DNA of 63,552 bases, filler included, from Reclinomonas americana ATCC 50394 (GCA_048213135.1; 14 parts of 14 records of this genome joined end to end with filler, not necessarily neighbours in it); one strand, 5' to 3'. Counted from the first letter of the whole stretch, positions 4,601 to 61,300 are shown. Made by a program: numbers and translations. The notes: generated by a model not told the origin, from the sequence alone.

Positions 4601-7600
4601 CGTGTAGCATCGATGCGACATTGGCCAGCCTCTCGGCACTGCAGATGCATGAGTACGCCAAGCAGGATGCACCGTCCTCGTTCGGCGCGCGAGTCGATGT
4701 CTTCAGAGATCGCATCCTCACCAACATTACCACGTCGCACCATGCCCTTGCCGTCCTGCACTCCGATTGGAGCTGGTTGGACAGCGAGGCCGCCATGCAG
4801 AATGTCATCGTAGCGGAATTCGAGGTGCCCAAGGTCAACATGGTGGTGCGGCCGAAGCACAGCCTGGATGTGATTGTGAATCACAGTGATTCTCTGACGG
4901 TCGGTACCCGCTGCTGCTTCATGAGTGCACCCTCGCTGTGCAAACACTGATACGGCTCTCGATGCAGCTGTATGCCTCACGCTCTCTTGCGCAAGCCGGT
5001 ATCCCTGCTTTGCGGCAGCCGGCATTCATCGAGAGTGCCGGGCGCAACAGCCTGCGAGCACGGAGCGCATGGCTGGAAGTATGTGAAGACATGATCGACC
5101 AAACAATCGAGGAAGCGGCGAACGCGAGTTCTCTGCTGTGGGTGTATGTGGGTGTGGCTGCTGGGTGCGTTTCTGCTTGCAACTCCGCATGTTGCGACTG
5201 TTCAGCAACGTTGCTAACTATTTGACTTCTCCCGTGCAGTATCGCCGTTGGTTTCCTCGTCTTCCTCTTCGTGCCGGCGCTGTTCATGGTGCGCCGCAGG
5301 CTCCGTGAGGGACTGGTGACGTGTCGGCTCGTGCCGAAAAAGGAAGCTGCCGCCATGCGACTCAAACTGCAGCAGCAGTACCTCACATATCTCGACATGT
5401 CGGAGAGTGACCGAAATGTTGCGCACTCTGTTCTCGATGTGTTTGAGCCGGAGGCAAGCACTGACTGTTCCGTTTTTTCTTTCGTGTAGGGTGTGCGACC
5501 GTCAGTGGTGGTGGAGTCCAAGTATCTGCCAACACAGTGCACGCGAGAGAACTGGCAGTTCCTCAGCAGCCTCGCCTTCCGCGCCACAGTCATCATGCTG
5601 TGCACAGTGGCAATCATCTTTGTCTTGGCGTTGCGTCTGGCAGTGTGTTACTAATTCCAGCACGGCGATCACTGATGAGAGTCAATGTGTATGTGCGTGT
5701 GTACAGGTGGGTATCCTCTCACGCTGATTCTACCACGGCAACTGCCATTCGCACGGTGGACGTGATTCACAGGCGAACAGGGAGTATGGCGGCCTTAACC
5801 CTTGCCATGTGGCAATACACGAAGCCGACAGGTCTCACGCCGACTGACGAGTTGCTGGCCAGTCTCAAGGAAGAGGCCACACAGGTTTTCTTTGTGAATG
5901 CAGGAGCTGCATCATCGCCGTGCATCGTTTTGACACCCGCGCAACAGGCAAGTATCGATGCAAGGGCCGTTCTTGGAGTGATCGACAACAGTGGTTTCTC
6001 GGCGACAGATGATGCCTTGCAGCACTCGATGTTGTATGGTGCGCGTTGTCGAGTGGATGAGCGCGGCAGCAATGTGACTCCAGTCTGGCGGGTCGATGTG
6101 GATTGCGCGCCAATCGAGTCGTTGGTAAGTTTGTCGTCTATGTGCTTTTACTCCGCTGATGCAACAACAATCTCACGCATCGTGCATGTGAACAGGTTGA
6201 GAAAATGATTGCCACCGGTCTCGCTGTGGCTGAGCGCGGGCCTCCCGTGACGAGTGCTGAAATGGATTCAATGGAGTTCCTGTTGGCCGCTCAGCCAGTT
6301 GTGCATGCTCTCTTTGATGAGTCAGCGGAAGTGAGTTATTATCTTGTCGATATCTAGTGCCATACTTTCTGACTCGCTACATGCAGCTATACAGTGGCAC
6401 CTACGAAGACTACATGACAAAACTCGTCGTCGGCGGTCAGATTCTGCTGGGACTCGGTCTCGTGGTGGCCGCTCTCGGATCCTGGCTGTTGATTGCACCA
6501 CTGCTTCGCACTTGTGATCTGGAGCTGCGCTTCTTCCGTGGAGTCATTGCAGGACTGTCTGTGGATGTCATCAGCTTGGTTCCCGAATTGCAGCAGTCAC
6601 TTCTTCCTCGTTGCGCTCCAAGTGGCCGCCACTTCCTGTTTTTTTCTCTGCGCGCATTGCTGACATTCGCACCTTCGTCAGAGTCGCTGCTGGTGTCAAT
6701 TGCGCTGAATCAGAAGCTGAACGAGAGCGAGCACATGTTGAAAGAATTGACACAAAGTTGCGTTTTTTAATCTTGCTCGCTTTGTGCTTTCATTTCTTGT
6801 TGTTCTGACACCTGCGATAGGTTTCGGAATGATTATCGCCACGGAGGATCTCACAGTCGAGTCTGTGAACAAGACATTTACCCGCATGCTTGGTTACATG
6901 TCCGACGAAATCGTGGGCTCCAGTGTCAAGGTACTGCACAAGCGTCTTACTGGTGGTGATATCAGCTCCTTCCAACTCTCGTGAATCGCAGACCATCATT
7001 CCACCACACATGCACTCAGTGCACGACATGTACATGAGCCGATTACTGCAGCAGGTCAACACTTCAACAACACGCTCATCTTTCCGGTTGGAGCGCACCA
7101 CTGTGGTAAGCAATGATGTGTCAGAAAAGTTCTCTTTTTCATGGTACCTCACCGCATACGCGCCACAGGCGAAGCATCGTCAGGGTCACGATGTGCCCAT
7201 TCGACTGATTGTGATGGAGATTCATGTTGACGGCCGTCTTCTTTTCGCTGCCATGCTACGAGATTGTGGGGCGGCACTGGCAGCGGAGGCCGAAGCGCGT
7301 CGCATGCACGATACGGTAAGTGCGCGCAGTCTTTAGTTCCCACTGAGAGCCGATCGCTCATGGTAATGTATCAGACACTGTCGATGGTGACGAGTATGCC
7401 GGAGGCGGTGGTTGTGACGGACACCTCAGGCACCATTCAGCAAGTGAACAAGGCGATGCTGGACTTGTTTGGCTATCCCACCGCGGCTGAGTTGATCGAT
7501 CGAAATGTGCGTCAGCTCATGCCGGCACCGCACTCGGAGCGCCACCACTCGTTGCGTGCCTATGGTGGCAGGCATCTTGCGACTGTATATTGACTTCACT

Positions 7601-26051: not shown

Positions 26052-29000
26052 CAGCATCATTCTCTTCGCTCGTTCCCAGTTCGATTCTGGCCGGCGTCGG
26101 TGTGACACACCAACTTCGTGTGTCAGGAACTGGCTTGCTACCGCCTGGCGCGCGCACGGTGCCGACAGACCCAGTGGCATTGGTGGTGGATGCTGCGTCC
26201 AACCCGACGTGCAGCAACGCCGACATTTCCGCTGTGCGGTACACGACGTCTTTGTCGTCGGCCAGCACCACGCAGTTGGTGTTTGGCTTCGATGCCACCG
26301 GCGTGTCAACTGGTGTCTATCGATTNNNNNNNNNNNNNNNNNNNNNNNNNNNNNNNNNNNNNNNNNNNNTTAATTAATTAANNNNNNNNNNNNNNNNNNN
26401 NNNNNNNNNNNNNNNNNNNNNNNNNGGCGACAGCCATCACGAACAATAGTATCAGTCTGGGTGTTCCGTATCTGGGACTGAGCAATGTGTCTGGCACGTA
26501 CCAGATATGTGCATCGTGGGGAACAGGAGCGCCGTTTTCCAGCGTCGGCACACTTGACGTGGGTTCGTATCGTGGTGTTTTCTTTGCTTGAGAGATCAAT
26601 CAACTCACTTGCGTGGATACATGTGTGTGTTCTATGATGTGCACAGCTGGGTTCTCGTCCGTGTCACCTGCTGCTGTCAGCATTGGCGGCGTTGGGTCGC
26701 AGCAGTCGTTCAACATCAACGGTCAGTCGTTCACGGACCTCACGACAGGTGGAGATGCGCAGGCGGTTGTTGTTGCGCGGTCGTGCTCTCCAATCAACAT
26801 GGCGGATGCGTGGACTCGCGTGCCGAGCAGTGTGTCGTTTGTGTCGAGTACTCGCATCTCGTTTGTGCTTGGCTTGAACGGGTTGGCCGCGATCAACGGG
26901 CTTCTTGTGTGCGTCCGCTTCTCGTCGACATCACTGTACACATCAGCCGGAACCATTGCGATCGGTGCGTTATTTGTTGGCGGCGAGAGAGAGGGAGAGA
27001 AACAACAAAGGAGAGCTTGCGACAGTCATTCACATTATGAGTGTGCTCACATGCTCTCTCTTCTCCGCAGAGGATTTGACGATCGATGCCAGCAGCATTC
27101 CAAGTACAGTGTTCCGCGGCTTCGAGTACACTCTTCGATGGCGGTGCTGGTCACGCGATGTGAATGCTCGAGTGGCGGTGACTGTGCAGCGTGTGTGTGA
27201 CAGCAGCAACGTGCGCGCTGTTCTTGAAGCCTATCCGGCTCGGTGCGATGCTGGCGCCACGCTCAACTCGCGAGTGTGGGTGGCGGTGGGGATGGACGAA
27301 GCTGCTGCGGGCACGTATCAACTGCAAGTGCAGCTGATTGATGTGGACGGACTGTCGCTGAGCCGCACATCGTCTGCATTCGGGTCGTCGCTCAGCAGCA
27401 TTGTGGTCAACTCGGTGTCGGTGGCGTCGGCGGACAGCGTCAGCCTCGTATTCACATGTAGAAACGAACTTGTCTCGGCCGTACAAGTGTCGGTTCGGAC
27501 GGCGACCAGTGCGAGTACCGAGACGGTAATTGGCAGCAATGTGGCGGCCACGTGCGGGCCGAGTACCGCCAGCCAGACGTATGTGTGGCAGCCGAGTGTG
27601 TCGTTTTCGGGGGCCGTTGATCTGGCACTGGATGTGGCCGACTTGCCGCGACTGACGAGTCGGTCGTCGAGTGCGATGTTTTCGTTGCCGACGATGGATG
27701 CGACGGGTGTGCGAGTGGTGGTGCCGACGGGTCACAGTGGTGTGGTGTTTGTGGGCGTGCAGTACACGATTGGGTGGCGGTGTGCACGAGCAGCAACTAG
27801 CAGCGTCGACGTGACCGTGAATGGAACGATTACAGTGGGAACTGGTGTGTCATCTACGTGTGGCAACTTGACGGTGGAAAACACGACGCAGTGGACGGTG
27901 AACAGCAGTCTGAGCGGATCGAACAACACGCGGGTGTCAGTGCAACAGACAGGCTATGCCGGCGCAGCCGGTCAGTCGTCCGTGATGCAGGTGCTGACGG
28001 CGAGTGCGACTCCGACGGGCGGCATGTTTCCGAGCACTGTGTACGAGGGCTACACGTACTCCGTGCCGTACACGTGCAATGTGCCTGGCGGCTACGTGCG
28101 GCTGCTGGTATCGGTGACAGGCAGTGCGAATGCGGCGGATACGGTGGAGGTGGCACGAGTGACGTCGTCGTCGACCGCGGCATGTGCGTCGACGGCGCTG
28201 AGTTGGACTGTGGCGCGTGCGGCATTGGCCATGGGCGGTGCGGCGGCTGGCGGGTACACGGTGTCGATTGAGGTGATGCACAGTGCACTCGTCTTTGGTG
28301 CTGCGAGCGGCGCGGTGAGTGCCGTCGGACAAGTGGGAGCCGTTGCAGACACGTTCACACCGGTGCCAGTGGTGATCACTGCTGGTGGCATGCCGACTGT
28401 GGTGAGCACTGTCAGCACGGACACGCTGTACCGCGTTCGATTCGGCTGTGTGGCGAATCCGCTCGTCGGCACGAATGTGGTGGTGGAGGCGATGGCACCG
28501 ATGTCGACGGCACCGATTGTGATTGGCACTGTGAATGGCGCGATGGCGTGTCCGAGTGGCTCCATGACCGTTGATTGGCGACCGCCGTCGGCACTGGTGT
28601 CTCTGGGCGGGTCGGTGGTGTTGTCGGTACGTGATGCGGCTGCTGCTGGAAGCAAGCGCACAAGTTCGAGCAGTGTGACGGTGGTCGCGTGGCAGCTGGC
28701 GGTGCGCATTGTGTCGGTGTGGCCGGAGCGTGTCAATGTCGGTGTGCGCTGTGCGCATCAGCTGGTGACGGCGGTGAATGTGGTGGCATCGAACGGAGTG
28801 ACGTTGCAGACGGGTGCACCGCTGACCTGCGCCAGTGCGGCGACGGAGAGTTTACTGTGGTGGAGCACGAGCACGTTGCCTGTGGGGACGTCACTGACGG
28901 TGCAGTTGGTGTATGCAGCCGACGCAACGATTGCGGTAACGAGTGCGGCANNNNNNNNNNNNNNNNNNNNNNNNNNNNNNNNNNNNNNNNNNNNTTAATT

Positions 29001-31723
29001 AATTAANNNNNNNNNNNNNNNNNNNNNNNNNNNNNNNNNNNNNNNNNNNNAGTGGAGAGAGAGAGAGCAAGGAGGAAACGCCTAATGGCGGACGAGAATA
29101 GAGAGCACACGATGGCGAGACGGCAAAGGAGCCGCAGACGTGGGAGAAGAATGCGAGAGAGGGAGGAGAGAGAGAGAGAGGCCGAGAAAGGGAGAGATAT
29201 TGAGAGGACATAGAGAGGGAGAGAGTGTGGGAGCGAGAGAGCAAGGAAGAATCGCCTGACGACGACAGACGGGAGTAGAGAGCATACAAAGGCGAGACGA
29301 CATCGAACCGCAGACGCGGGATGCGAATGAGAGAGAGAGAGAGAGACTGTGAAGGCACGAGAGTGGGAGTAGATATATTGAGAGGGAGAAGAGAAGAGAG
29401 AGAGCACGAAATGAAGAAAACAGCACCTGCTCACCCGCTCGTTGTGCACAGCATCCTTGTTCAGTGTGACGTCTCTCCAGCTGCCGTGGACAACACCGCC
29501 GACGGCGTTTGAGGTCAGCGCCATCACACTGCAAGTGCAGTGCAACCTGCCGTCGGTGACTGGCGTCAGTGTGGCTGTGTTGCCGGCTGGAGGTGGCGCT
29601 GCTGTTGTGGTGGTGCCATCACAGGCGGTGACGTGCGCTCTTGGAGGAACCACGTTGACGGTGGGACCGGCTGTCGTCGGTGCGCAGCCGACTGGTGTGT
29701 CATACGTATTGCAAGTGACGGGGACGGACGGTGGCTCGTTTGCACCTACTGCCACGTCGTCGGCCTTCGTCCTGTCTGGTGAGTTTCTGAGGTGGTGCTG
29801 ATGGACATGTTCGGTGTCTGCCTCTTGCTGACACATCTCACAGCGCCGATGTTTACGATGACGTCGCCTGCCGCCGACACGGTCCTGTATCACAACTACC
29901 AATACGAGGCAACGGTGCAGTGCGTGCAAGACAGCGCGAGCGGATCGGTCGATGTTGATGTGCTGCTTGTGGGTGGCGGCGGAACGACGACTGTCGCTCT
30001 CGCCACGGCATCGCTGCTGGAATGTCATCCGCGTGCGGCAGGTGCCACCTGGCCGACCGTGTCCTTTGCTACTCCAGCGACGACTACTGAAGGCGTGTGG
30101 ATATTGCGAGTGCAGTTGAGCTCGTCGCCGACCACCGTTTTCGATGGTGTCAGCGTGACAGTTCGTCGTGCACTGGCCATGGTGAATCCAGTGATCAGCA
30201 GCGCGACGCCAATCTTCACGGGCGAACTGATTCGCGTCGGCTTCCAGTGTTTCGGCAATCCGCAAATCACGGCAGTGGAGGTCATTGCGCGGCAGTCATC
30301 TGGAGCGACGATTGTTGTGCGCCGAATCGATCCGTTTGTGTGCGATCTCACCTCCCCGGTGACTGCGTTCGACTGGCGTGTCGACGCGACACTGCCTTCG
30401 CAGCCTATCGGTCTACTCGTGCGTGACGCGGTGCGCACCAGTGCCGAGTCGGCGGCCATCCAGGTACCGCAGTTGTATCGCACGCAGTTGCGCAATGCGT
30501 CGGTGCGGGCGGCCGATGGGGATGTGGCGGTGGTGGTGGCCGGTGAGGATATCGAAGTCGGCTGGCAGTGCAACAATCCCGCCACGCAGTCCATGCAGCT
30601 GCGCTTGATTCGTGCCGTCAGCAGCCTCACCTCGTCGGCGGTGGAGGCCACGGTGGTGGTGTCGCCGGTGCGATGTTCACCGCAATGGGACGCGAAGAAC
30701 GTGTATGTGTGGACACTGCCTGCCGAGGTGAAGACCGACACGTATCAGGTGGAGGTGTACGACAATCTGCGCAATGTGGCGTTGAGGACGCTGGCATTTG
30801 CCGTGCAACGTGAGTTTGATGAAGAGAGGGTGAAGAGGGGAAGGGGAATGAGAGGGGAAGGGGGAAAGAGGGGAAGTGGAAAGAGTGGGGAAGGGGGAGA
30901 GAGGGGAAGGGGAAAGAGAGGGGAAGGGGAAAGAGAGGGGAAGTAGAAAGAGAGGGTGGAATTGTGAGGAAAAGAGAAGCTGAGATTGAAGCAGGAGGGA
31001 CGAGCAGAGAAACGAGATGTTTTGGGTTTGCGGGGAGGGTGAAGCGAAGGAGAGGAAGTAGAAAGAGAGGGTGAAAGTGTGCGGAAAAGATAATCTGAGA
31101 GTGAAGCAGGAGGGACGAGAAGAGAAACGGGGTGCTTTTGGGTAGCGGGGAAAGTGCTGAAGGAGAAGGAGAGGAAGCCGCATGAGGAGAGTGCAAGGAA
31201 AAGATAAGCAGTGAGTGAGGCAGGAGGGACGAGAAGAGAAAACAAGTCGATGTGGGGCTTTGGGGACAGTGAGGGGGACGGAGAGGAAGTGGAAGGAGAG
31301 GAAGGCGCATGAGGAGAGTGCAAGGAAAAGATTAGCAGTGAGTGAGGCAGGAGTCGATGTGGGGTTTGGGGACAGTGAAGGGGAAGGAGAGGAAATGGAA
31401 AGAGAGGAAGGCGCATGAGGAGAGTGTACGCTAAAGGGAGACAGAGAGTGCGGCTGGAGGAATGAGAGGAGAAAATCGAGCGCATTAGAGTTTGCAGGGA
31501 AAATGAAGAGGAGATAGGGGACGCAGAAAGAGAGGAGCCCGCAGAGCGAGTCCCTTTTGCTCCTTCGATAATGTGGGGGGAAGAGATGAGTGTGATTATG
31601 TACTCTCTCTGCAAGTGAAGTGCAGAGTCGCTCACCTCATGAGAGAGGGAAGAGAGTGCGTGTGTTAATGCAGGATGGAACTCAGTTTGCTGCAGCATTG
31701 CAAGGTAGCGGTATTTTGTGCTG

Positions 31724-31758
<35 letters not shown>

Positions 31759-33766
31759 CTCCNNNNNNNNNNNNNNNNNNNNNNNNNNNNNNNNNNNNNN
31801 NNNNNNTTAATTAATTAANNNNNNNNNNNNNNNNNNNNNNNNNNNNNNNNNNNNNNNNNNNNGGACGCGCTGTCAGTGCTGGGTGAGTTGGGAGGAAGGG
31901 AGTGGCGGGGAAGGCAGAGACTGAGTCCGAGTTAGGCATTCGATAATAGGAGGGATAGTAATGGGGAAGTGGGATGGCGGTGAGGTGGGAGAGAAGTCGG
32001 GCTGGAGGAAAGTGGAGGCTGAGCTGAGAGACAATGAGAGAAAGGTGAACGAAGTATGTGCGGCAGAACAAGAGGTGGTCAGATCGAAGGCACAATCAAC
32101 GTCGGCATAGGCACCGTCTGCTATTTGTATTTGCATCGTGAACGCAGCAAGCGAGACATAGAGCAGAGTGCATGGACGAGACTTGATCAGATAGAGGACT
32201 CAGTTGACGAAGGCACCGCCTTGCATTGTGCCACCACAACGTGTTCAGGGCTCCAATTAGTTTCCTTGATGTGTTTGAGAGTTTGTGACGTGAGCACCGC
32301 GTGGTGCTTGTATTTGCATCGTGCCACCACCTCTTGGTGTAGCGCCTCTCCTGCGATCCATTGATACATTCACTGACTCTGTTTGGTTTCCCCCGCAGCT
32401 CCTCCGTTGCAACCCGTCATGAACACGAACACGACGACGACTCCGGTGCTCGAGTACACGGACGGTTACACACTCAAGTGGCAGTGTCTGCGTCGAGCCG
32501 TGGCCTCGCAGCGCGTGCATGTGTTGCTCACTGCCAACCCGCGCAACTCGACCGCCGTTGTCACTGGCAGTGGCACGACGAGTCCGTCATCTGAAAGTGG
32601 CCTGCCGTCGACTGCGAGTTTCGTGGCTTGGTGCCGCGCTGCATGCTGTCGTGATCTCCGTGAATTAACTCGCCGTGTGCGATTCCGTTGCAGTTGTTGG
32701 CAGCCTCAATCACGTGGTGGTTTCGGGTGCCAGTGCACAGCATTTCTGGATCGTAGCGTTCAACATTACATCGACATGCAGTTGCGTGTCCACGCTGTTT
32801 CTGTCGGTTGGAGGTGGACTTTTCGTCTCATTTTTAATGTGTGAACACAGCGGAGAGCAACAGCACGAGTTCACGCGCTGCTGCCGACGACGTGTTCAAC
32901 AGCATCAGCTTCTCGGCGGCCTCGTCGCTTGCCAGCCAGGACCTCATTTATCAGGTGACATTTGCTGCGCTCTGCTCTCTTCTTCTTTCTCAAACGGACA
33001 CACTCACTTGTTGCTGCTGACTTGGCAGGCGACGGTGATGGATGCCGATCAGCCATCGGTGGTCGCTCGGAGTGCCGAGTTCACACTGCAGAGTTTCGTG
33101 GCATGCGCAGTGCACACGAGTCGTGCAGCGACTGACACAGCTCTCTCACTTTATTTTACCGCAGGTCCGACCTCGACATCGTCAACAGATACCAGCAGCA
33201 GCAGCAGCAGTGGCGGAGGGAGTCGCGGACTCGCCAGTTGGGCGATTGCGCTCAGCGTGGTCCTGCCGTTGCTGTTTCTCCTTTTGCTACTTCTGCTGCT
33301 GTTGTGGTTCCTGCGCAAGCGGCAACTGCAGAAGCGGCTGCGCGACAAGCACGAGCGGCAGTTTGAGAGTGCGCGCGTCAAGTTCGACAGTGTCAGTCCG
33401 GTCAGCGCGAGTGGCGTGGAGCCTTTGTTGCAGGCGGCGGCATCACGGTCGCCATCGTCGCCGCCGGCTTTGTTACTTCCGCTCACACCACCTCCACTTC
33501 CGTCCTCGCCAGTGTCGCCAATGCATGGTCACGTTTCGAGAGGCCTTGTGTTGACGCCGCTCGAGTTGCCGTCCACGCCCACCTCGAGTGCACGTGAACA
33601 GGAGGGTGGCGATACAGATGTACGCAGTCGTCAGCATCTGCGTGCGCCTGCAATCGCCGCCGCTGCGGTGTTTGCGCCACCGTCGCGTGCGCTGCTGACT
33701 TTGGTGAGTTCTGTTGTTCAGCATCGTCAGCTGGGAGGAGAGAATGCTGAGAATGATGGAATGTAG
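16631..33766 (+). CDS. Giant type-I membrane protein: signal peptide, NHL-repeat beta-propellers, FN3-like and Ig/IPT-like Ser/Thr-rich domains, single TM, Pro/Ser-rich tail; crosses six gaps
   Basis: Signal MSRSAIHHLVLLATAVVIIAASCTVAHG; many YVADxxNxxIR...VTTxAG...DGxGxxARFNxPxG repeats (18040-23440); TGLTTNTIYYYRAVA; TM WAIALSVVLPLLFLLLLLLLLLWFL-RKRQ (about 33240-33320). Continuity across gaps and the exact last exon are inferred. Confidence 0.8.
30830..31430. repeat. Purine-rich diverged tandem repeats in a long intron
   Basis: Recurrent GCAGGAGGGACGAGAAGAGAAA and GCATGAGGAGAGTGCAAGGAAAAGAT blocks. Confidence 0.75.
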
Positions 33767-35619: not shown

Positions 35620-41042
<5,423 letters not shown>

Positions 41043-48408: not shown

Positions 48409-50365
48409 TTACCATGCCGAGGTGTTGTCCAGCACGCGATCCACCCGCAACACGTGGCGATGGCGATTGACGACGGCCTTGGAGGTGAGCAGCGTGCTCC
48501 GCCGTTGCTCGGCATCAAACTGGCGCATCGTTGTGGCGAATTCGCGAAGTGGGCCATCCGACGTGGGCAACACTGCCGGTTTGCCAGTGGATGCTGATAG
48601 CCATTGGTCGACCAGCTGGCGCACGGTGGCGACTGCGAAAGCGACGTGAGAAGGCAGAGAGACAAGCACGAGGATTCGCGATGAGGCAAACCTTGCACGC
48701 GGAGCCAATCATCGTCCACAACGGCGCTAAGCGGAAAGGACGTGGCGACCGTGCGACAGCTGGACTGCAGCGCCGAGAGCACGTCAGCAGGCAAATTCAC
48801 CGGATCAGGGTCGGAGATGCCGGTTGCCAGAGTCTGGTACATGTGGGTAAAGGCGACTTCGAGGACGGCGAGGCACTGAGGAGGGAGGGAGGGGAAAGAT
48901 GAGATAAGAGAGCAAAGAGGTGGATGACTGATCAGCGAGAAGGGAAATGAGGCGCAGAAGTGAGACACAGGGGGCGGCATGTGCTGAAGACAATGAGAAG
49001 AGGAGACATGGAAATGCTCAGTGGGGAGCAAGAGAAAGAGGAGTGACACGCGCTATAACTGTCAAGTGCAACTCAAAAGGAGGGAGAAGAATTCAAAACA
49101 TGCACCCCGGCAAGTGAAATCGCACTTTGTCGACTGACAAGCAACGATGCGACTGGCGGCGAAAGTACATGACAGAGTGAGCGAGAGACTGGCGACAGGT
49201 GAGCGACGCAATAAAACCAAAAGGACTGAAAGCAGTCTTGAAGCGCAGGACACGGCGTTGCTTGCTTGTGTGGTGCCCCTGTTACATCACGTCTCTGACT
49301 ACTCGGACGGAGTGCAGTGCGCGTCAGATATGAAGCACCACAACAGCCTGAGCGCAAACAGAAGACGTGAAACCAATTCGCTGTAAAAGTCCCGTGAACA
49401 TGGAAACAAAATTTGTAAAGAACAATCCGAAGTGAACAAGTGAACTTGGAGCACACTGCCTTGCCCTCTTAGCAATCTCCCGCCACGCAACTGCCAACAG
49501 CAATACCTCGCCGACAAGAATGGACGACGGCCGACCCGAGAGAAACCACGGAACCATCGTGGTCACCACAAACACGAGGGATGTGGCGCGACCAATGCTG
49601 GCGGCTGTGTCAAGTGTCAGACATGAGTAATTCATGCATTCTGTGTCGGTGTACCAAACCGTCAGGAAGCGCGCACAAGATGTGCAAGTGCCACGCCAGA
49701 CGCCGACGATGATCGCCACAGAGGTACTCGGCCGGCAACTCGCGCGGCCACTCCCACGACACCGGCGAACGACGTCGATTGAAGCAAGCAACAAAAAGGG
49801 GACTGCGAGAAACCTGTGAGGACGATTCCCGCAAGCAGGAAAGCAATTCTGCGCACCGAATGGAATTCCAGCAGTCGAGGCAGGTGAGCCATCGCACTCC
49901 GGCATCGACTTCCTGCACTTGTCGAGACACGCGGCGTGCGGGTTGTCGTGCTGGAGGTCGCACACCGTCCTTGCCGCCTCCTCCACGACCAGACACGGCA
50001 GTCGGCCTGGCGGGTGGAGGCACACACAGCTGCACCCAGAAGCTGCCGTCTCATTGTGAGCAACCAGCAAGGTTCTCCCGACACCAATGGGGAGGGCGCA
50101 TACCGAGTCGCTTCGAGATCCATGTGTCGCAAGCTCTGCGCGGCCTGCACGTGCGCCGACTGCGCTTTGCGGTATTGCGTGCAAGCGGTGGTCATCAGCA
50201 GGTGGGCGAGCCATGAGGAGGTTGCGGGGAGGGTGGGTGATTGGAGCGGTCGACGGCAGAGGAGGGCGGTCAGCAGGTAGCGCGCGAGACGGCTGAGCGC
50301 GACGGTGTGGGAGTGGTGCACGGCGGATTGGAGGCGGTGGAGGGTGGTGGAGAAGTTCACGCACA
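48409..50365 (-). CDS. Hypothetical spliced protein (partial model)
   Basis: Exon-like segments bounded by pyrimidine-rich acceptors: CLAVLEVAFTHMYQTL...DDDWLRVQ|VATVRQLVDQW...LDNTSAW*. Upstream exon frames unresolved; no family recognised. Confidence 0.4.
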
Positions 50366-50404
50366 CTGGATGGAGAGAAGGGTGGAATAAAGGAAAGAGA
50401 AAGC

Positions 50405-50790
50405 GAAAAGGGGAGAAGAGTGGAAGTGAGCAGTGGGAAAATATGAAGATGATAAGGGACGAGGAGCGAGAGCAGCGAGAGAACAAAGGGAGACAGCGAT
50501 AAACAGGCACATCGACTAGGGAGAAGAGCGGAGGTGAGCTGTGGGAAATATAAAGATGATAAGGGACGAGGAGAGAGAGTAACAAGAGAACAAAGAAAGA
50601 CAGCGATAAACATGCTTATCGAAAAGGGAGAAGAGTGGAGGTGAGCTATGGGAAAATATGAAGATGATAAGGGACGAGGAGCGAGAGTAACAAGAGAACA
50701 AAGGGAGACAGCGATAAACAGGCTCATCGAAAAGGGAGAAGAGTGGAGTAGAGCAGTGGGAAAAGATGAAGATGATGAAGATCGGGAGAG
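50405..50790. repeat. About 108-bp tandem repeat, three to four copies, probably intronic
   Basis: GGGAGAAGAG(T/C)GGA...GGGAAAATATGAAGATGATAAGGGACGAGGAG...GAGAACAAAG..AGACAGCGATAAACA near 50411, 50519, 50626, 50734. Confidence 0.88.
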
Positions 50791-51186
50791 TGAGAGAAGC
50801 AAAGAGTAAAGAGATAGAAAGAGACGTCGATAGGGAGACGAGGAGGCGAGCTGTTGGAAGCCTTGAAGATGATGGTGGACGAGGAGAGAGAGAGAACAGG
50901 CAGAGAGTGAAAGAGACAGAAAGGAACAGGTTCATTGAAAGGGGGTGGAAAATGCAAGGGAGTGAGAAAGGCATGAAGATGAAGAAGGTCGGGGGAGTGA
51001 GAGCAAAGGCAAAGTACAAAAGAGAGATAGGGATCAACAAACACATCGCGAGAAACGAAAAACAGAGAGAGGACAAGGGAGAAGCGCGGACGTGAGAAGT
51101 GGGAATCACATAAAGATGAGGAGGGGGTTGAAGGAGTGAAAAAAGCAAGACAACGAGGAGCCATGATGCGGCACTGAAACCTAAGA

Positions 51187-51225
<39 letters not shown>

Positions 51226-51325
51226 NNNNNNNNNNNNNNNNNNNNNNNNNNNNNNNNNNNNNNNNNNNNTTAATTAATTAANNNNNNNNNNNNNNNNNNN
51301 NNNNNNNNNNNNNNNNNNNNNNNNN

Positions 51326-51387
<62 letters not shown>

Positions 51388-51826
51388 GTGCATCTCTGCA
51401 TCTCATTGCCTCACCATCACTTGCCTTTCTCTCTCTCTCTCTCACCCTCTCAACCTCACAGTCTCTCTCTCTCTCTCTCCCTCTCTCTCTCCCTCTCCCT
51501 CTCTCTCTTCCCCCTCCCCGCACCTGCTCATCCTCACACCCTCCAATGCTCGGCGACGAATCCAACACCGACGTGTTGCTCCAATACGACACCGACAAGT
51601 GCTTCAGCAGCACGCGCACGAGAATGGAGAGTGGCCACAAGAAAATCAATGCACACACTGCACTTTGTGTGTGAGAAATAATGACACCAAAAGCGCGCGC
51701 TGTCTTCACCTGCGACAATCAACGTCACGCCACACACTCCTCCACACTCGTCGAGCATGCGCACAACGAAGAAACGCGTGTAGTGACAGACTTGACTTTC
51801 TGTCGATCGGTTCCAGCAATATCGTT

Positions 51827-54822
51827 TTACTTATTTCTGCGAGTGCGTGACGCAGATGTGATACTTTTGCCACGGGTAACAGCACTAACAGGTACTCTCC
51901 ACGATGTCAGCGACAAGCCCACAAAGATTGCCACAAACGGAACCACCTCGTACTCGGGATGCAACTTCCGCAGGTTCGTCGCATATCGCTGCACCTGCTT
52001 ATCGGCGGCAGCTACTGTGGCTGCAAGTGTCGTTGTGACCATAGCTTGCGCTTTCTGGTTGAAGTAGCTGTACGACAGAGATGGCAGGGGTTTCCTGCCA
52101 TTGTCGGTCGTGAAATTCTCGTTCGTCTGCACAGACGACAATTCGTTAGCGAACATCCAACTCTCACCGCGAAGAAACAGGAGATGCGCACCGGAAGCAC
52201 AGCCTCGAGAGCGGACTGAGCCTCATCAGTACGATGTGCCTTGGCCTCCATGTTTGTCGACTGGCTGGTTGGAGGACTGCGAAGATTCAAGTGGATCGTG
52301 TTTAGTGGAATGCACTTGAACTCGAGCACCAGGATGCGCTTCGGACACTCCATGAAAAGCGCCATGTCGCAGATTGCTGACATTGGCTCATGCTACACTC
52401 AAAGAGTAAGTGTAATCGCAAGTCTCACAGTTCGCAGCATCGTTGCTCACCTCTAAGCTGATATTTATCTCACACTCAGTCTTGGCCGGAACTTTGGCGG
52501 CCATGAGCTGCACGTCAAAGGCGTCCCTGACGTTTACCTCGCGCATTTGCTCTGGATTGCACAACATGCGTCGGCGCAAATAGCGTTCACAGACGTCGCT
52601 CAAGGGAACAATGTTGAGATCACTGCTTTGTGTTGAGCATACACCGAGTGAAAGGAGGACGTAGAGCGGCAATTGAAGAAGAACCTGAGGAGCGAATTGC
52701 AGGCAGTTGGATCGGTACGCTGCACGAGGCGCTGGAGAATGCGATCGCGCGTGCTCTCATTCGGTACAATCAGCGCTGTGCGAGGAGTCAGTGAGGGTGC
52801 GACAAGTCGGAAGACAAGAGATGACAACACAACAATTTCCATCCGGCGCGATCGTATAGCCGCCGAGGTACTGGCAGAACTGCGCAAATGCGGGCGCATC
52901 GGCACTGGCAATGTCATCACGGCGAAAGGCTGCCATGTCACGCGGCAGTGGGATCTTGGAACCACGCAGCATGCCAAGCAGCGACGGCAGGTGAGGCGAC
53001 TCCACCATCATCTGCAGTGCCGGGCTGCTCAGCTCGGCCTGCTGGAATACAGTGGTCGGCGTTGCTTGACCCAGCTCTATCAACTGTGGGACCTGATGAG
53101 AGGTGTCCGACAAGTGCGAGGAATGAGAACAAAAAAACCACCCGCAGGTACGACATGACTTGGTCGGTGCAGTACATGGGAACGGCATCCGCGGACGGGA
53201 AGAACCGAAAGCCCTCGTAATGCTGCCGGATGACGGTACGGTGGAATGTCTTCTCGCTGACAGACAACGAGCGAGTGCCGTTGAACTGCAGTTGGTCCAA
53301 CAGCAAATCAACCTCGGCGCCCGTCAGACCGCACACGGATTGCGTTTGCTGGAAGAATGTCCAATCCTGACCGATGTTGAAGCCGCTCGTCATGTCGTTC
53401 ATGAACAGTGGGAGCACACTACGCACGCGTACGGGGGAAATCAGTGCCATCAGTGTACGTGATGGGGATCATGACAGGAGCTCACCCAGTGATGAGCATG
53501 AAGCCAATGGCGTCGGCCTGTACAGCACTCTTGATGGTGGCGAACAGACCCTTCACGCCACTGTCGCTCAGCAGAATATGGTACTTGCGCTCGGCGTCGT
53601 CGTTCAGTACTGGTACAAAGGGGCGATCGGATTCGTCGACGAGGATGACGAGCTGCGAGGTGGCGTGTGTGTGTGAGTGTGTAAGTGAGTAAGTAAGTGA
53701 GTGAGTGAGTGAGTGAGTGTGAGTGTGAGTGTGTGTGTGTGCGTTTGCGTGTGTGCATGTGTTGGCGATTGAAAATGAAAGAGCAAGCTGGTCATGATCA
53801 CACCTTCCTGCCGAGACCCCGCACGGTTCTCACAATGGCCTGAAGCACAGCAGAAGGCTTGCCGAATCTGGCAATGCCAGACGCCTTGAACTCGGGATAG
53901 CTGTCCAAGAAAGGCGTGACGCAGAACTGCAAAAAGAATTCCTCAAAGGTGACGCGTGATGACTGTGGTTCCGAGAGTGAGAATTCCAGCGCCGTCATGT
54001 CCATCCTCAGCACGTAGTGCTGGCACGGTAGCTGGTTGCGGTGTACCTCGTGGATGCGATCCACAATATGTAATCCCTGCGGCGAGAAACAGACAACCAC
54101 AAGCAACGACAAACGCAAACACAAAAGTGGAGGGGAGGGAGAGAGAGAGAGCGTGAGGGAGAGCGACGCTTCTTGAAGAAGGGCGACCAAGTGAAACATA
54201 CCAGGAAAAGGCGCTCGAACTTACTCTCTCCCTGTGAGGCCTTTCTGCTGAGCAGCCGCGTGTGCAGTGCCGACACGGCGCGCTCGCGGATGGCCCGCAC
54301 TTCCGTGTGTGAGCGATCAGCCATGGCCTCACGTTCAGCGGAAGACAGCGCATTGTTGATGTCGTGATAGTTGGCGAGAGTGTCGACCAGCATGCTCTTG
54401 CCGAAGCGGCGAGGGCGCACAAAAAGAATAGGCGACACTCTCTCAGGAGCAAGCCAGGGGAGAAGTTGCACGGTCTTGTCGACATAACAGAACGACTCGC
54501 TCGTGCGGATGCCGACGAAACTGTCACCAGTGGGTGGTGGAATCAAGTGCCCTGCGAGAAGAGGAAGGATGACGTGCGTGAGAGGTGCGTAAAGGATCAG
54601 TCGCTCTCGCTTTCTCTCTCTCACAGCACACGAGCAAGAGTGTGCGAAGAGAGAGAGAGAAAAATTGCGTGTCAGGTCTGGATCCGGATACTCTGACCAC
54701 ACAGTAATTATAATACACTGCATATTAGCTGTTCACGCACCTCCAACGTTAACGACGGAGGCAGTGGCGGTGGCATAAGTGCGGAGAGATGCGTGGGTGG
54801 TGATTACCCACAAGCGCATCAT
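51827..54822 (-). CDS. AAA-ATPase-like domain plus PD-(D/E)XK nuclease (PDDEXK_9/DUF1703 type), intron-containing, with candidate mitochondrial presequence
   Basis: YVDKT...FVRPRRFGKSMLVDTL; LVILVDESDRPF; MLITG|VLPLFMNDMTSGFNI; CGLTGAEV; HYEGFRF; LIVPNE; CDMAL...ILVLEFK; ADKQVQRY. Exon 1 (54822-54741) reads MMRLWVITTHASLRTYATATAS. Confidence 0.85.
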
Positions 54823-54902
54823 CTTTGGAGATCAATCTACAAAACAGAAGGTGAGATGTCCTGCGGAAACAGCACACGACGTCCCGGAGTCTTTGCGTGT
54901 GG

Positions 54903-55180
54903 ACACCGATCTAGGGTTGAGGGTGGAGAGAGACATTGATTACACGCACACACCGATCAAGAGTCGAGGGTTGGGAGACACTGATTACACGCACACACCG
55001 ATCAAGGGTCGAGGTTGGAGGAGTGACATTGATTACACGCACACATCGATCAAGGGTTGAGGGCGGAGAGAGATACTGATTGCACGCACCGATCAAGGGT
55101 TGGGGGTGGAGGAGAGACACTGATCACACTCACATATAGAATAAAGGGTTGAGGGTGGAGAGGGACACTGATCACATGCA
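54903..55180. repeat. Second array (about 6 copies) of the 46-bp minisatellite family
   Basis: CACACCGATCAAGGGTTGAGGGTGGAGAGAGACACTGATTACACG units, same orientation as 41086-41540. Confidence 0.9.
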
Positions 55181-55309
55181 CCGTTTCTGAAGAAAAGGAC
55201 AATGACCGTGCACCAGAATGTACAGTGTCCGCGACGACAGCGGTGGTTCTGACGTGTTGCAATCATTCAGCACCTACTCGGATCCAATGCTCTTGCACAG
55301 TACACTGAA

Positions 55310-58300
55310 TCAAACAGCTCCTGTGACCATGCCGCGATGTTCGGTTCTGTTGTAATCCTCGTCGGCAGCCTCCAGTAGCGGCGCATGGAGCGTTGAGTCG
55401 CCAGTAACTTGCACATGACGGCTCGCACCCACTTGCATCTCGATTTCTGTTGAGCAGCGACGGGGAAGCATACAGAGATAAAAGGAATGAGTGAGAGAGA
55501 GAGAGGGTAATGAGAGTGCTCTGCATCGAGAATCCCCGCCTCTAAGACGACGCGCACCATCGGAAACTGCGGATCCTCGCCTCTGCCGACGTCTGCAAAA
55601 CGCCACCACGGCCTTGATACCAGACAGCACTACTGGGCCCACCAACACTGCGCCAGCCAGCGAGAGCACTACGATGCACGTGACAACCTTGAAGCGCGTG
55701 GACGCCTGCGATGCGAACACGGTGGATATGACAACCAGCGAGCCGAGCCCGATGGCCTGTCAAGCACACAATGAGAATGCATGTGTGTCCGCACTCACAG
55801 TGCACGACTCACCTCCAGCACATTGTACAAGAGGTGTTCATAGGCGCGAACAACAAGGTGCACCGCGAGGAAGGCGACACACACCACCCACAGTGCCAGT
55901 GGAAGGATGTCGATGGATCCCGTGGCGGCGAGAGGGAAGAGCACAGCGAGGATGATCAGACGTCGACAGAGTTGATAGCCTGATGTACCGAAAAGGAATA
56001 GTGAGAAGTCATGCTCGGTGCGGTGACGACCTTCATCTGCAATACTGATGGTGGGGCAATTGTTGACTTTTGTATTCCCCTACTGTGTGTTTGCTTGTCC
56101 CTCAGTCTGTGGTGCGAATACGAGACTCTTTTCGACGGCAAGTGGCAGTGGTGTAACTATTTGCCGTGCGTACTCAGGAAGCGCTATAATCTTATCTTGA
56201 ACGCGAGAGAGTAACACAAATAGTGCAGCGGAGAAGCAAACAATTAAACATCAGTGCGCCCGTATGCATTCTGACCTCACTGCTCTCAACAACTTTTGGG
56301 CATGATTTGCTGTGCGCACCCAGCAAATGCAAAGCCTTATCTTGCACGTGAGCGAGTGACGCAGAGAATACATCGGAGAAAAGCATCAACCTACCCGCGT
56401 GCATTCTGATCTCGCTGCTCGCTTCCACCCTTCCCTCTCGAGTCACTCACCTTGATACCACACCACCGGAGGCCGGAAGTGGTCGTACAACACACCGAAT
56501 CGTCGCCGAGTCTGTCACACAAGAATGAGACCATGGCATCTCACGCAAGCTTCTCTTGCAATCCCACCGACCTTCTCGTCATGCAGTCTCTTCTGCCGAC
56601 GCAAGCGCACGGTCCACCACACCACCAGCACTGGCACACTGAGAGTTGCTGCCAGCAGCACGGCGAAGAGCGGAATCAGTCGCTGCCACCTGTGCACATA
56701 TTTGTTGATCAGCACGGAACGAGACAGCCGCACCGCTGCAAAATCAAACGCAACACTCCCTCGTAGCACACAATGCTGGGTGAAAAGAGCACCACATGAC
56801 TGTTGCCGACCTCCGTGCACGTGAAAAACGTAATCGCCGTCTCCGCCAGGCCCTCGTACGCTCCCAGCAGCAGCACAACTGTTGTCAGGATGTAGTGGTG
56901 CGGCGAGGCGATAACCCTGAACCATGTGACGAATCGCGGCCATCGTCCGCTCGTCGAGCCATGGTGGATGCAGCGCACCAATGCTCTTGCAAGCAGCCAA
57001 TGTAGAACAAAGCAGGCCCACAAGATCGCCAGCGACACAAATGGCGACACGACACGAGCCAACAGGTCACCGACAGCGTCTGTGTTGAACGGACAGCCGA
57101 CATCCAGAATGCGCGGCACGACAAAGGTGAGCAGCCGGTTGAGAGAGATGAGTTCCACGTTGGGGTAGAAGAGGAGTGTGGTGGTCTGGAGGGTGAAGAT
57201 GATGATTTCGGCAGATGCTGCAAGCAAACATTCAAGTGGGTCAGTCTTGATCCAATCAACACGGGTGTGTTTGCTTTCCTCTCTAACTGCCTATAGTTCC
57301 TCTTGCTTCATGTCTCTTCTCCTCACTTGCTGTCTCTCCTTCGACTGCGTCGTGTTACCATCTTTCTCCCACTCGCTGTGTTCCGCAATGAGTGCGGCTT
57401 CCCTCATCGCTCCTCTCACGCCTTTCCTGTCTCCCTTCCTCTGGGACTCGCTCGTCTCTCCATTGCTCTTCTCGCCCTCGCCTTTCCCATCTCTTCTATT
57501 CTCACTTTCGCGTTTCCCGTCTCTTCTTCCGGATTACACACCTTCGCCAACATCAATCTGGAAGAAGACGTGGATGAATAGCACAAAGGCAAGCATCTTT
57601 GTAAACGTCCACAAGCGCGCCCATCCAGAGGTTGATTCGCACGGAATGCACAGTCCCTGCCACTGAGAGTAGCCCTCCTGCACATTCCAGTGAGTTCATC
57701 ATCTTCCACTCGTTGCATCGACATGTGACTCACCTTGCATGCTCCACACAGTGGCGAGTCCGACGCACGATTTGTCTCCTCACTGCAGTATTCGGCATCG
57801 ACGGCAACCAAAGTTTGACTGGCGTTGTCACCGCGTTCGCAGTAATCATAAGGACAGAGGTATGCCACCACAGTTGACGGTGGCGACACTAGCGTGCCTG
57901 TCCATCCTTTCGACAAGACACCCTCAATCTGCCAGTCAGCATCAACTGGGAAGGTCCAGAACTGCGACTGCACTGCCATCTGCAGTCCGCCGAGGCAGTC
58001 GGCATTGGCTGGACACGGTACACTCGTCTGGTTGAATGCGCTCGTCGGCAGCGCATACTCGCCAGGGGGACATTGCTGGCAGCCAATGTCCGTGTAACTG
58101 TAACCCGCTGGGCAGGCTGCCAGTGGCAATGAGAGCTCAGGCTGCGGGCCGACAAAGCCACCACCAGAGCCGGTGGTGATGCTGATGCTCACAGGATCAC
58201 CGCTGTCGCGCAGGTGCGCGCGAATGCCTTGAGTCGGATTCGCCCCACGCTCGACAATCGTCAACTGGAATGTCGCTGTTCCAGCCTCAGTCGACTCCGA

Positions 58301-61300
58301 CAGAGAGCTCGTCTGCATAAGTGGACGGGTCGTCAGCGAGGAACAATCTTGAAAGAAGAGATGAGAAAGCACGACAAACCGCTGGACTGCAACCAGTAGA
58401 GCAAATGACGTGGAACTGGGTATTATCCAGCGTGGACATGAATTGACCAAAGACATCCGTAGCGTTCACCTGTATCACTCGTGGTTGCTGTGGCGATGGA
58501 TACGGCACGCCACCGGTCAAACCCATCATAACAGAGTACAGCGCTGCAGCGGAGCACAAGCCTTGAAAATGCAAGCACACATATTGCTCATCACATGCAA
58601 CGCAACTGCTGCCGACATCATTCGCCAGCGTGTTGCTGGCCAGGTTACCAGTGACGCTTAATTGCCGCTGTTGCATCCACGATGACCACCCACCAGCCGC
58701 TGTGAACGACTGCCATACAGCAGCCAGCGTGGACGGATTGCCACCACCGTTCCAAAACACCCCGCCACCGGCTCCTTCGCCAACCAATCGCGGTTGACCC
58801 AGAGGCGTCACCGCTTGGTTGCCAAACACTGACACACCAAGCAGGAACACGCCGACGGAACTCGCTCTCGACTGAGTGATGTTGACGGCCAGACCGCCAC
58901 CGCGTGCTCCACTCCAGTTGTCAGCAAATGTCGTTGAGACAAAGGAAGTCACCGTCGTGTCCACTACTGATGCTCCACCACCATCACCTCGCTCGGCCGT
59001 GTTGCCTACAAAGCGAGTGTTCGAGCTGGTGACGTTGGCAGAGCCACCAGCAAAGAGTCCGCCACCAACTGTTGTCGCCGTGTTGTTCATCAGCAGCGAG
59101 CCCGTGATGTTCACTTGTGGATTGTTGTCCGTGTAGATACCACCACCGTTCTCAGCTTGGTTACCCTCCACAGTCACCGCAGTCATTGCCACTCGCGCAG
59201 TCTCCGCCGCCGACACGCCACCACCACCGCCACCACTAGCGACACGATTGGCGAGGAGGCGTGATCCCCGCAGCGTGGTGCTTGAACTACCGGCGGCATA
59301 CAATGCACCGCCCCACAACTGTGCCAGGCCAGCACTGAGTGTGCTGCCCGTATCAATCCACATTCCCAGTCCTTGCGTAGTCACATGACCGCCGGAGGTG
59401 GCTGCTGTGTTGCTCAGGAACTGGGTGGTGGACGATGTTACATTGGCCGTCTGGGACACGTACATGGCGCCTCCGGCCAGGGTGGCATTGTTGGTTGACA
59501 ACGTGCAGTTGGCGAGACTGATCTGCGACACGCCATCGGCATACACGCCACCACCATCTGCAGTCGCCTGGTTGCTGCGGATTGACGTTCTGATCAGCGT
59601 GTGCTTGCTGTTCTGGTCGATAAACAGGCCACTACCAAAGGGGGCAGAATTGCCCACAATAAAAGCGTCGGACCAAGAAGACGAGGACTGCAGGTCGGCA
59701 AACATTCCACCACCGAAATGAAGTGCCTTGTTGTTCTGCACACTAGAGCCGCTCGACACTGCAAGCGTGGCGGTGGCGGTGAGAAATAAACCACCACCGC
59801 TCTGCGTTGCTTGATTGCTGTCCACCACAGATTGCGATTGAATCTGCAAGTCTGCCTGCTCGGCACGCACAGCAAGACCGCCACCATACAGCGCCGTGTT
59901 GCTGGAGATACTGGTCTTGCTGATTGTGGCCGAGGTGGCCACCTCGCTGAGCACCACTCCACCACCGTATCCGTCAGGCGCCAAGTTGGACGTGATGAAA
60001 GAGTCCATAATCTTGCAGCCCTGTCCGCTCATGGCCACGCCACCACCACCCGTTTCCAGCGCAGTGTTCCCCGAGATATGAGATGCGGAGAGTAGAGACT
60101 GCGCTCCCACCAGCACACCGCCACCAGTTACGTGTTCGCCAGACACAGAGTTGCCGGAGATGATACATCTAGTGGCCGAGCTTGATGCGTCGAGCAGCAT
60201 TGCGCCACCCCCATGAGAGCGACCGGCAATGACAAGCGGGACAGACGATTGTACGGAGTTGCCAGTCAGGGCTGACGAGGAAATCGCGGCACCGTCGACG
60301 GCGAGCACCGCACCGCCACCGCAGAATCCACCAGAAGGATAGAGCGCATTCCCGGCACCAGCATCTTCCACGCGGTTGTCGACAAACTGAGAAGCGGAGA
60401 GGTATGAGGGCGAATTCACCAACAGCACGGCACCACCACCGTTGTGGTTGCTGCCTTGCCCGTTGAGAGTGTTGCTGAGGCCACCCGCACCGTCACGGAT
60501 AGACTGATTGCCGATGAATGTGCAACCCGTAACGTTGAATGTGCCCTGAGAGCGGAGATACGAATGGGCGAGTGAGTGGGCTTCGATCACGACATCATGA
60601 GCAACAGAAACGATGCAACTGCTGTTGTCGACGGTGCAACCAGCAACGCTGCTCCTCCACCATTGAAGCCGCCAAAAGAGGCGCCGATTGTACTGTTGAA
60701 ACCGCCCGCACCATTGTGCCACGATGTGTTATTGAGAAACTGGGACTGGCTGACCGTCTGCATGGTGGTGGTGACAGACTCAGGACACTACGAAGACGGA
60801 TGCACTCGGGGACAAGGTAACGAACTAGAACGGAAGAAGAATTGGGGGTGGAGAAGACGAGCAGTGCGCCTCCGCCGGAAAAGGTTGCAAGGCTGCTTCC
60901 CGACGACGTATTTCCGCTGCCCCCGTTTCCTGTGTGAACGATGAGTAACAATGATTTGATCACAGAAAATTCTGACGATTGCACGGCAAGAGTGGGGATC
61001 ACCATTGCCGCCAGCGGAGTTGTTGAAAAAAGTGCAGCCGGAAATCTTTTTCAAACGCAAGATGCGACAAATGAGTGACACTCTGAGACACTTGGTGAAG
61101 CTGACAAGCAGAACCTCGAGAGTGCCGGGAAGAGTGGCCAGGACGGCACCGCCGCCACCGGCTGACCCGATGGCATCGCCTCGGTTGGCACTGCTGCCTC
61201 CAACAGCATTCCTTGAAGCCACATTGGAGAGGAATGCGCAGTCTCGTATGACCGCCTGCGCAAGCGTGATAATGAGTTCAGGCAGTTATGCAGATAGACG

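Follow-up and report, generated by a model that had tools for sequence, protein, structure and literature searches.

Evidence for a distinct class of GTTGCG-type 5′ splice sites in a Reclinomonas americana DNA window, and its possible reading in a displaced register

The stretch of Reclinomonas americana ATCC 50394 DNA considered here (63,552 nucleotides at its full length, about 63.5 kb; hereafter the window) is intron-rich eukaryotic DNA with a G+C content of about 55%. Its introns are short, mostly 60–90 nucleotides (nt), with branch motifs of the CTCAC/CTGAC type and CAG acceptors. Five genes on the plus strand were identified by Pfam searches with stop-to-stop frames and by direct sequence inspection. 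They encode a membrane PAS-PAS-PAS adenylate/guanylate cyclase (PAS-cyclase; about 4.3–10.0 kb), a UBA/ubiquitin-like (UBA/Ubl) protein (10.7–12.3 kb), an aldo-keto reductase (AKR; 13.7–16.1 kb), a giant NHL-repeat and Ig-like surface protein anchored in the membrane at its C-terminus (16.6–33.7 kb) and an ABC exporter (ABC transporter; 35.6 to beyond 40.4 kb). The genes on the minus strand are mostly lineage-specific, and only a MAPEG and an AAA-ATPase-like family were recognised among them. A first-pass annotation had listed 20 donor sites in the window, mostly GTTGCG, that lack G at both the last exon position (−1) and the fifth intron position (+5), and had proposed them as a second mainstream donor class. 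All 20 hexamers indeed lie where they had been placed, on the strand assigned to them, and 18 of the 20 serve as donors in stop-free gene models. These 18 sites, of the form G(T/C)T(G/T)CG, are the subject of this analysis.

The evidence consists of the DNA of the window, protein homology and paralogy within the window. Exon–intron models of the five plus-strand genes, which were picked because they carry sites of the first-pass annotation, were written by hand, and a script moved boundaries, by no more than 2 nt, to the closest GT/GC...AG with which the coding sequence stayed free of stops. Introns across masked N runs (e.g., at 17828, 20737, 22120, 26313 and 28943) and the uncertain stretches at 23.77–24.19 kb and 30.8–32.4 kb were left out of the models. 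The resulting stop-free coding sequences contain 71 introns, 12 of which are in frame and free of stops, so that their retention would lengthen the proteins. Early gene parses were too noisy and served as guides only, except for one tally that was blind to the donor sequence. A test for plausible introns based on open reading frames alone was uninformative, as 20% of all GT sites pass it.

The PAS-cyclase gene contains five introns of the class (coordinates refer to the plus strand unless stated otherwise, and a slash marks the cut after the last exon base). The intron at 5630–5706 (77 nt, c/GTTGCGTC) is needed to join two frames, although its donor is not unique, as a GTGTTA at 5645 would be in phase too. 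The next one, at 6610–6681 (72 nt, c/GTTGCGCT), is part of a stop-free model in which retention in frame is possible as well. Removal of the third, at 6757–6820 (64 nt, a/GTTGCGTT), is obligatory, given an in-frame stop 12 nt into the intron, and its in-phase alternative donors are GC sites only. The fourth, at 7551–7619 (69 nt, c/GTTGCGTG), is placed by PAS homology and paralogy, while the fifth, at 8263–8340 (78 nt, t/GCTGCGTC), is a GC variant of the class (GCTGCG); it is obligatory as well and uses the sole nearby in-phase donor that leaves the PAS frame open. The three PAS domains of this gene lie at 6821–8400, and two of them carry an H-x-x-Y motif, which we take to resemble the haem-binding motif of FixL-type PAS domains.

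In the UBA/Ubl gene, the single class intron at 12042–12104 (63 nt, t/GTTGCGTT) has the features of an intron and is at the same time in frame and free of stops. The AKR gene also has one, at 14049–14119 (71 nt, t/GTTGCGGC), with the protein junction HID/TA. Five members interrupt the NHL-repeat part of the surface-protein gene. They are found at 18282–18339 (58 nt, t/GTTGCGCA), where the spacing of D, five residues and IR needs this cut; at 18600–18671 (72 nt, t/GTTGCGTC), which is in frame and free of stops and follows the repeat pattern IKT/VTVPGG; at 19224–19374 (151 nt, t/GTTGCGTG), with an in-frame stop 6 nt into the intron; at 23108–23182 (75 nt, t/GTTGCGTC), again with the D, five residues and IR spacing and with the acceptor gcgtag/caa; and at 23306–23366 (61 nt, t/GTTGCGTC), with the junction FNQP/YG. 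The part of the same gene that encodes the C-terminus contains three more. Two of these are GTTTCG variants, at 32618–32693 (76 nt, a/GTTTCGTG; obligatory, placed by frame logic) and at 33093–33164 (72 nt, a/GTTTCGTG; intron features, in frame and free of stops), and they have an 11-mer at the junction in common, which suggests that they are probably paralogous. Between them lies the obligatory GTTGCG intron of a stop-free model at 32781–32850 (70 nt, a/GTTGCGTG).

The ABC transporter gene carries the last three introns of the set. A GTTTCG variant at 36490–36561 (72 nt, a/GTTTCGTT) is obligatory through an in-frame stop; it falls in a loop region, where homology does not place the cut. The intron at 37141–37217 (77 nt, t/GTTGCGGA) is also obligatory, and the spliced sequence reads R-L-x-x-N, presumably the counterpart of the R-L-x-x-D that we associate with ABC exporters; Pfam and PDB searches gave no match there. 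The third, at 37566–37764 (199 nt, t/GTTGCGTT), follows a 12-nt microexon of four codons at 37554–37565 that is optional for the reading frame. This intron is the least certain of the 18, since it requires the microexon, and the frame is kept as well if that exon is omitted. Microexons do occur in the window, as a 13-nt AKR microexon at 14516–14528, which the frame requires, is flanked by two textbook introns of 76 and 69 nt.

Outside this set, four further sites have to be mentioned. An additional GTTGCG intron that had escaped the first-pass annotation lies on the minus strand at 56690–56754 (65 nt, t/GTTGCGTT). The upstream frame ends within it, and on the downstream side the frame codes for a membrane helix and then a basic stretch. 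It is a convincing candidate member. A candidate class donor, also new, is found in the intron at 5418–5489 (72 nt, t/GTTGCGCA). Its acceptor could equally serve a GTGCGC donor at 5289 that is in phase, and an open, juxtamembrane-like frame fills the 129 nt between both donors. The remaining two sites are those of the original 20 that did not enter the models. At 58606 on the minus strand (58544–58606), an 813-codon open frame passes through, and neither a branch motif nor an acceptor scoring at least 7 was found within 45–200 nt; this site is probably exonic and not a donor. The GTTGAG site at 40 on the minus strand (1–40) has only 39 nt of its putative intron inside the window.

Homologues or paralogous repeats determine six junctions to the base, namely those at 14049, 18282, 19224, 23108, 23306 and 7551. 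For the AKR gene, 27 weak protein matches were obtained with an open reading frame still holding intron-derived residues, and the six full-length homologues among them were used. In all six, D is directly followed by T, as the cut at 14049 predicts, and a hidden Markov model (HMM) built from them scores the protein cut before GTTGCG at 308.7 bits, compared to 302.0 bits when GTT is kept in the exon and a GC donor at +4 is used, a gap of 6.7 bits. In the NHL gene, the spacer between (V/I)xD and I(R/K) counts five residues in nine uninterrupted paralogous repeats, and it also counts five in the repeats interrupted at 18282, 19224 and 23108 when the proposed cuts are made. Uninterrupted NHL homologues from metagenomes have the five-residue spacer in 22 of 30 cases, the remaining eight not fitting the search pattern. 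Likewise, the cut at 23306 restores an F-x-x-P-x-G motif that is present in seven uninterrupted repeats. The spliced PAS-2 segment around 7551 gives an ungapped alignment with PAS-1 of this gene, in which the P, H and Y positions coincide. The Pfam PAS match stops at the 7551 junction and the Pfam NHL match at that of 19224. The Ubl site at 12042, which the first-pass annotation had also held to be fixed by protein consensus, does not have its junction fixed by the ubiquitin fold.

For the reading frame, removal is obligatory in 14 of the 18 introns, either because the length is not a multiple of three or because of an in-frame stop. The four that are in frame and free of stops (6610, 12042, 18600 and 33093) represent a proportion similar to that of the ordinary introns (8/47). 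In-phase alternative GT or GC sites exist for every class donor, none of which has the form GT(A/G)NG after a G. When single short exons of the ABC transporter gene were compared with Pfam and PDB, the 90-residue exon was the only one to give a match, and searches with its exons for longer homologous proteins returned nothing except one irrelevant match. As the short exons matched nothing, the junctions at 36490, 37141 and 37566 are placed by frame logic. A metagenome scan yielded distant uninterrupted NHL homologues only and no close relative with orthologous introns, and no homology search that was made revealed a close relative of the surface-protein gene.

The NHL repeats also permit some observations on ordinary introns. 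In the model of the ordinary GTGCGT intron at 21615–21703, the repeat spacer is three residues long, compared to five elsewhere, and one of its boundaries may be misplaced. The introns at 18282, 19224 and 23108 on the one hand and those at 20737 and 21615 on the other hand occupy nearly identical positions in the repeat, with offsets of 0, 2 or 4 nt, and differ in donor class (GTTGCG versus G/GTGCG). Intron sliding or independent gain could account for this.

The composition of the donors separates the class sharply from the rest. Among the 71 introns, 47 have an ordinary donor with A or G at +3, mostly GTGAGT or GTGCGT, and these carry G at −1 in 34 cases, G at +5 in 38 and T at +6 in 30. In the class, G is never found at −1 (T in ten, A in five and C in three of the 18), +5 is C and +6 is G throughout, and +7 is T in 14. 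The remaining six donors have a pyrimidine at +3 too (GTTCGT three times, GTCGGT, GTCTGC and GTCTGT), of which five have G at −1, all have G at +5 and five have T at +6. The +3 pyrimidine donors are thus bimodal, with 18 of the GTT(G/T)CG type without −1G, six with +5G and no intermediates. The absence of −1G from the class (0/18 versus 34/47) is significant when compared to ordinary donors (p=4e-8), as well as against the codon-position composition of the curated genes (P = 8e-4). The GTTTCG variants make up three of the 18 members. G is found at +3 in 39 of the 47 ordinary donors, and GTAAGT is rare (2/71).

Ordinary donors show a seesaw between the two positions: 12 of the 13 without −1G have +5G, and eight of the nine without +5G have −1G, so that 46 of 47 have at least one of both. 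Both are missing from all 18 class donors. Because the class does without both while the ordinary donors keep the seesaw, there is no continuum of donors, and the data support a distinct, second mainstream donor class instead of general degeneracy. The first-pass annotation had proposed a test for G at +6 in place of +5G, and every member lacks +5G and carries G at +6. When the donors are split by their +3 base, a dependence on −1 is present in this sample, contrary to what a generally degenerate donor would give. Apart from the donor, the introns are like the ordinary ones. A YTNAY branch motif, with a median distance of 15 nt to the 3′ splice site, is found in 17 of the 18, the acceptors are CAG or TAG, the median length is 72 nt (71 nt for ordinary introns) and the G+C content is equal. 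U12-type introns are ruled out, as a TCCTTRAY branch site is missing from all 18. An assembly error that adds a T to GTGCG can be dismissed as well, since the −1G of 72% of the ordinary donors would then persist.

The hexamer itself is a specific signal. On the sense strand of the curated regions, which comprise 16,031 nt of exons and 9,006 nt of introns, GTTGCG is used as a donor at 14 of its 20 occurrences, compared to 12/20 for GTGAGT, 11/29 for GTGCGT and 3/10 for GTTTCG, and seven composition-matched control hexamers are never used (0/109). In the parse that was blind to the donor beyond GT/GC (70 introns), the most frequent words at +3 to +6 were GCGT (six), TGCG (five) and GAGT (five). 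The share of 25% in the five curated genes (18/71) overstates the rate, as these genes were selected for holding such sites; outside these genes, a rough parse based on a model gave 3/31 for the remainder of the window. Overall, the class accounts for about one in five introns of the window, close to the one in five or six estimated initially.

Beside the introns under study, the window shows other features in the same genes. The surface-protein gene (16630–33707) is apparently one very large gene, with a signal-peptide-like start, at least 12 NHL repeats, a membrane helix and a proline-rich tail; many Ig-like or Kre9-like modules are candidates in it, on a protein-atlas lead. CT/GA-rich inverted repeats that can form hairpins occupy 10856–11240 (both strands) within the first UBA/Ubl intron (906 nt) and produced many weak Rfam matches resembling microRNA precursors, all far under gathering scores. 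A minisatellite with G/A-rich units of roughly 16 nt (14700–15360) takes up most of the 732-nt eighth AKR intron. Other long introns (9310–9600, 38040–38260 and 39720–40300) are filled with similar GA- and CA-microsatellites, and these also flank masked N runs.

How could such donors be recognised? The first-pass annotation had described each of them as a common local donor with one extra base after GT, and position by position this holds: the class positions +1 to +7 match the ordinary positions −1 to +6. More specifically, +1 G, +3 T, +4 G (less often T), +6 G and +7 T mirror the ordinary −1 G, +2 T, +3 G (less often A), +5 G and +6 T, and the G-poor −1 of the class (0/18) parallels the ordinary −2 (G in 6/47). 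In the best explanation, the members are genuine U2-type introns whose 5′ splice site is of a distinct, third kind, N/GU-U-(G/U)-C-G-(U) in which N is never G, and this site would be read one nucleotide displaced from the local ordinary donor G/GUGCGU. In the displaced register, +1G would replace −1G, +3U would replace the U of GU and +4 to +7 would replace +3 to +6, leaving +2 unpaired or bulged. Cleavage before the sole GU would then cut one base upstream of the place implied by the recognised block. The readers would be U1 and later the ACAGAGA box of U6, pairing in a shifted or bulged register. Position +3 is invariably T and +2 may be C (in GCTGCG at 8263), which fits pairing of +3, and not of +2, with the A of the U1 5′ end. 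Counted against a textbook U1 5′ end (a short motif that may differ from the organism's own), the class forms on average 6.1 of 11 pairs in the shifted and 4.1 of 11 in the canonical register. Both the shifted and the +2/+3-bulged register have been proven in human cells, and U1 only marks the site and U6 can set the cut later, according to Tan et al. (2016; PMC4856993).

Several results count against a displaced reading. With nearest-neighbour energies that leave out pseudouridine and the U1 proteins, the mean duplex energy with the textbook U1 end is −0.9 kcal/mol for the class, compared to −2.7 for unused exonic GT sites and −6.9 for ordinary donors; in terms of the area under the receiver operating characteristic curve (AUC) versus exonic decoys, the class reaches 0.23 and the ordinary donors 0.88. 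Sixteen hypothetical U1 ends that keep CC at positions 8–9 give the class an AUC of at most 0.59. C is found at +5 in 18/18, though the equivalent ordinary +4 is A in 21 and C in 16 donors (p=1.8e-5), which suggests that the invariant C is itself read, e.g., by a G. Similarly, T at −1 occurs in 10 of 18 where 3.8 are expected (P about 0.001), and a shifted register does not predict a T there. GTTGAG, which the displacement of a GTGAG donor would yield, is used at none of its five occurrences in the curated genes. Moreover, the hypothesis was known while the gene models were made, which is a source of bias, and the sample is a single 63-kb window with all 71 curated introns on one strand.

In a rival explanation, a guide RNA of its own would serve the class, in the simplest case a variant U1 whose 5′ end complements (U)GUUGCGU; it would pair contiguously and unshifted with its donors, in parallel to the standard U1 for G/GTR donors. 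The near-invariant 7-mer, with its constant +5 C and favoured −1 T, resembles a Watson–Crick read-out at each position, and GTTGCG marks donors as specifically as GTGAGT does. When 64 hypothetical U1 ends were compared, the ...ACG(U/C)A(A/G)C... types attained an AUC of 0.94–0.98, versus 0.23 for the textbook end. In this duplex model, no single sequence serves both classes well, and class-complementary ends fail on ordinary donors; a single altered U1 end serving both was therefore rejected. However, the model is crude, the three GTTTCG variants would mismatch such a guide, and the one-base-shifted likeness to the ordinary donor would be a coincidence. No variant U1-like RNA was seen, as Rfam found no small nuclear RNA (snRNA) in the window (no match reached the gathering score, and all those at E≤1 were weak, microRNA-like and on the hairpin repeats). 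We consider a variant guide possible but rather doubtful. Its full form, in which two recognition systems run in parallel within the major spliceosome, the standard U1 for G/GTR donors and a U1-like guide complementary to (U)GUUGCGU for roughly a fifth of the introns, with the offset carried to U6 docking, seems unlikely to us.

The other alternatives are less probable. If the donor of this lineage were simply degenerate, GTTGCG would be one of many tolerated sequences and recognition would depend on exon definition, U5/U6 or proteins. Ordinary donors are loose indeed, as +5G is missing from nine of 47 and donors like GTACTG, GTAGTT and GTGGTC occur, and the hexamer does not suffice by itself, since five exonic GTTGCG copies are unused. 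Yet degeneracy is contradicted by the bimodality of the +3 pyrimidine donors, by the usage of GTTGCG relative to the matched hexamers and by the broken seesaw, which makes this explanation improbable. It is still less probable that the junctions were misplaced, i.e., that GTT is exonic and a GC-AG intron starts at +4, or that the stretches are no introns at all. An in-phase GC does lie three bases downstream at every GTTGCG site, retention would keep the frame in four of the 18, and 58606 on the minus strand looks exonic; however, the extra residue that an exonic GTT implies is rejected at 14049 by the homologues and the HMM and at 18282, 19224, 23108 and 23306 by the repeat spacing, the frame demands the splicing of 14 of the 18, and the 3′ signals are those of ordinary introns. 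Wherever it could be put to the test, a GC-AG intron from +4 is thus ruled out. Common descent of the introns, as introners or within duplicated repeat units, would explain a shared donor, and the same place of 18282, 19224 and 23108 in the NHL repeats and the 11-mer common to 32618 and 33093 would agree with it. It is contradicted by the spread of about 15 class sites over unrelated positions in five unrelated genes (our own count from the gene models) and by a blastn comparison of the 71 intron bodies (word size 9, E≤1e-3), in which three non-self matches were obtained and no class member was involved. A mobile intron family is therefore ruled out, and common descent in general is hardly credible as the explanation. 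Taken together, we put the probability that the class is real and distinct at about 0.85, and that of its being read in a shifted register by the general snRNAs of the organism at about 0.5.

A class read in a displaced register has its closest counterpart in the shifted and +2/+3-bulged sites of mammals, known from the work of Roca and Krainer. As those sites are presented in Tan et al. (2016; PMC4856993), they have the same cut at GU followed by a consensus-like block that is displaced by one base, without +5G. By the number of predicted pairs, the class would likewise pair better with the textbook U1 end in the displaced register, though by duplex energy it is predicted to bind that end worse than exonic decoys do; a role of U1 here is putative. 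In Table 3 of that paper, the +2/+3 bulge register is predicted for 54–68 of 201,541 human sites and all noncanonical registers together amount to about 2%. The human sites are thus rare, unlike the class, which accounts for 18 of the 71 curated introns. It further differs from the mammalian sites in that its motif is near-invariant, copies the local donor in its GCG form only, never follows a G at −1 and favours T there. Two main types of 5′ splice site, AG//GUNNN and NN//GURAG, are distinguished in the published classification (PMC11732430), and the ordinary donors of the window obey the −1G/+5G seesaw of these two. Within the same scheme, the class resembles the intron-weighted NN//GURAG in having no G on the exon side, but G is at +6 instead of +5; it fits neither of the two unless the register is slid by one base.

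Other known intron types offer partial likenesses. The class has in common with U12-type introns that a second sharply defined donor motif exists beside the major one, although an own snRNA would be involved only if a variant U1 were at work. The U12-type donor motif is /RTATCCTT, which is not that of the class, and in branch site, acceptor and length the members are ordinary. Like GC-AG introns, the member at 8263 has GC at +1/+2, and a GC occupies +4/+5 of every GTTGCG. No description of GTTGCG/GUUGCG donors or of an abundant shifted class was found in a full-text literature search that lacked most subscription journals, so that a genome paper may have noted them.

An altered register or variant snRNAs, the two causes put forward in the first-pass annotation, remain plausible explanations for the class. 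So far, displaced U1 registers are known only as uncommon departures from the rule in mammals, the +2/+3 bulge amounting to a few hundredths of a percent. If they are mainstream in this organism, it would provide a natural system for the study of how the cut site is fixed when recognition and cleavage lie one base apart. It would also show how far the pairing of U1 and U6 can bulge, and whether variant snRNAs partition introns among them. Should two guides turn out to operate side by side, they would constitute a natural, genome-wide analogue of the engineered suppressor U1s. For the annotation of this genome, the class has a practical consequence as well, as about a fifth of its introns would be overlooked or wrongly placed by gene finders trained on one donor matrix only.

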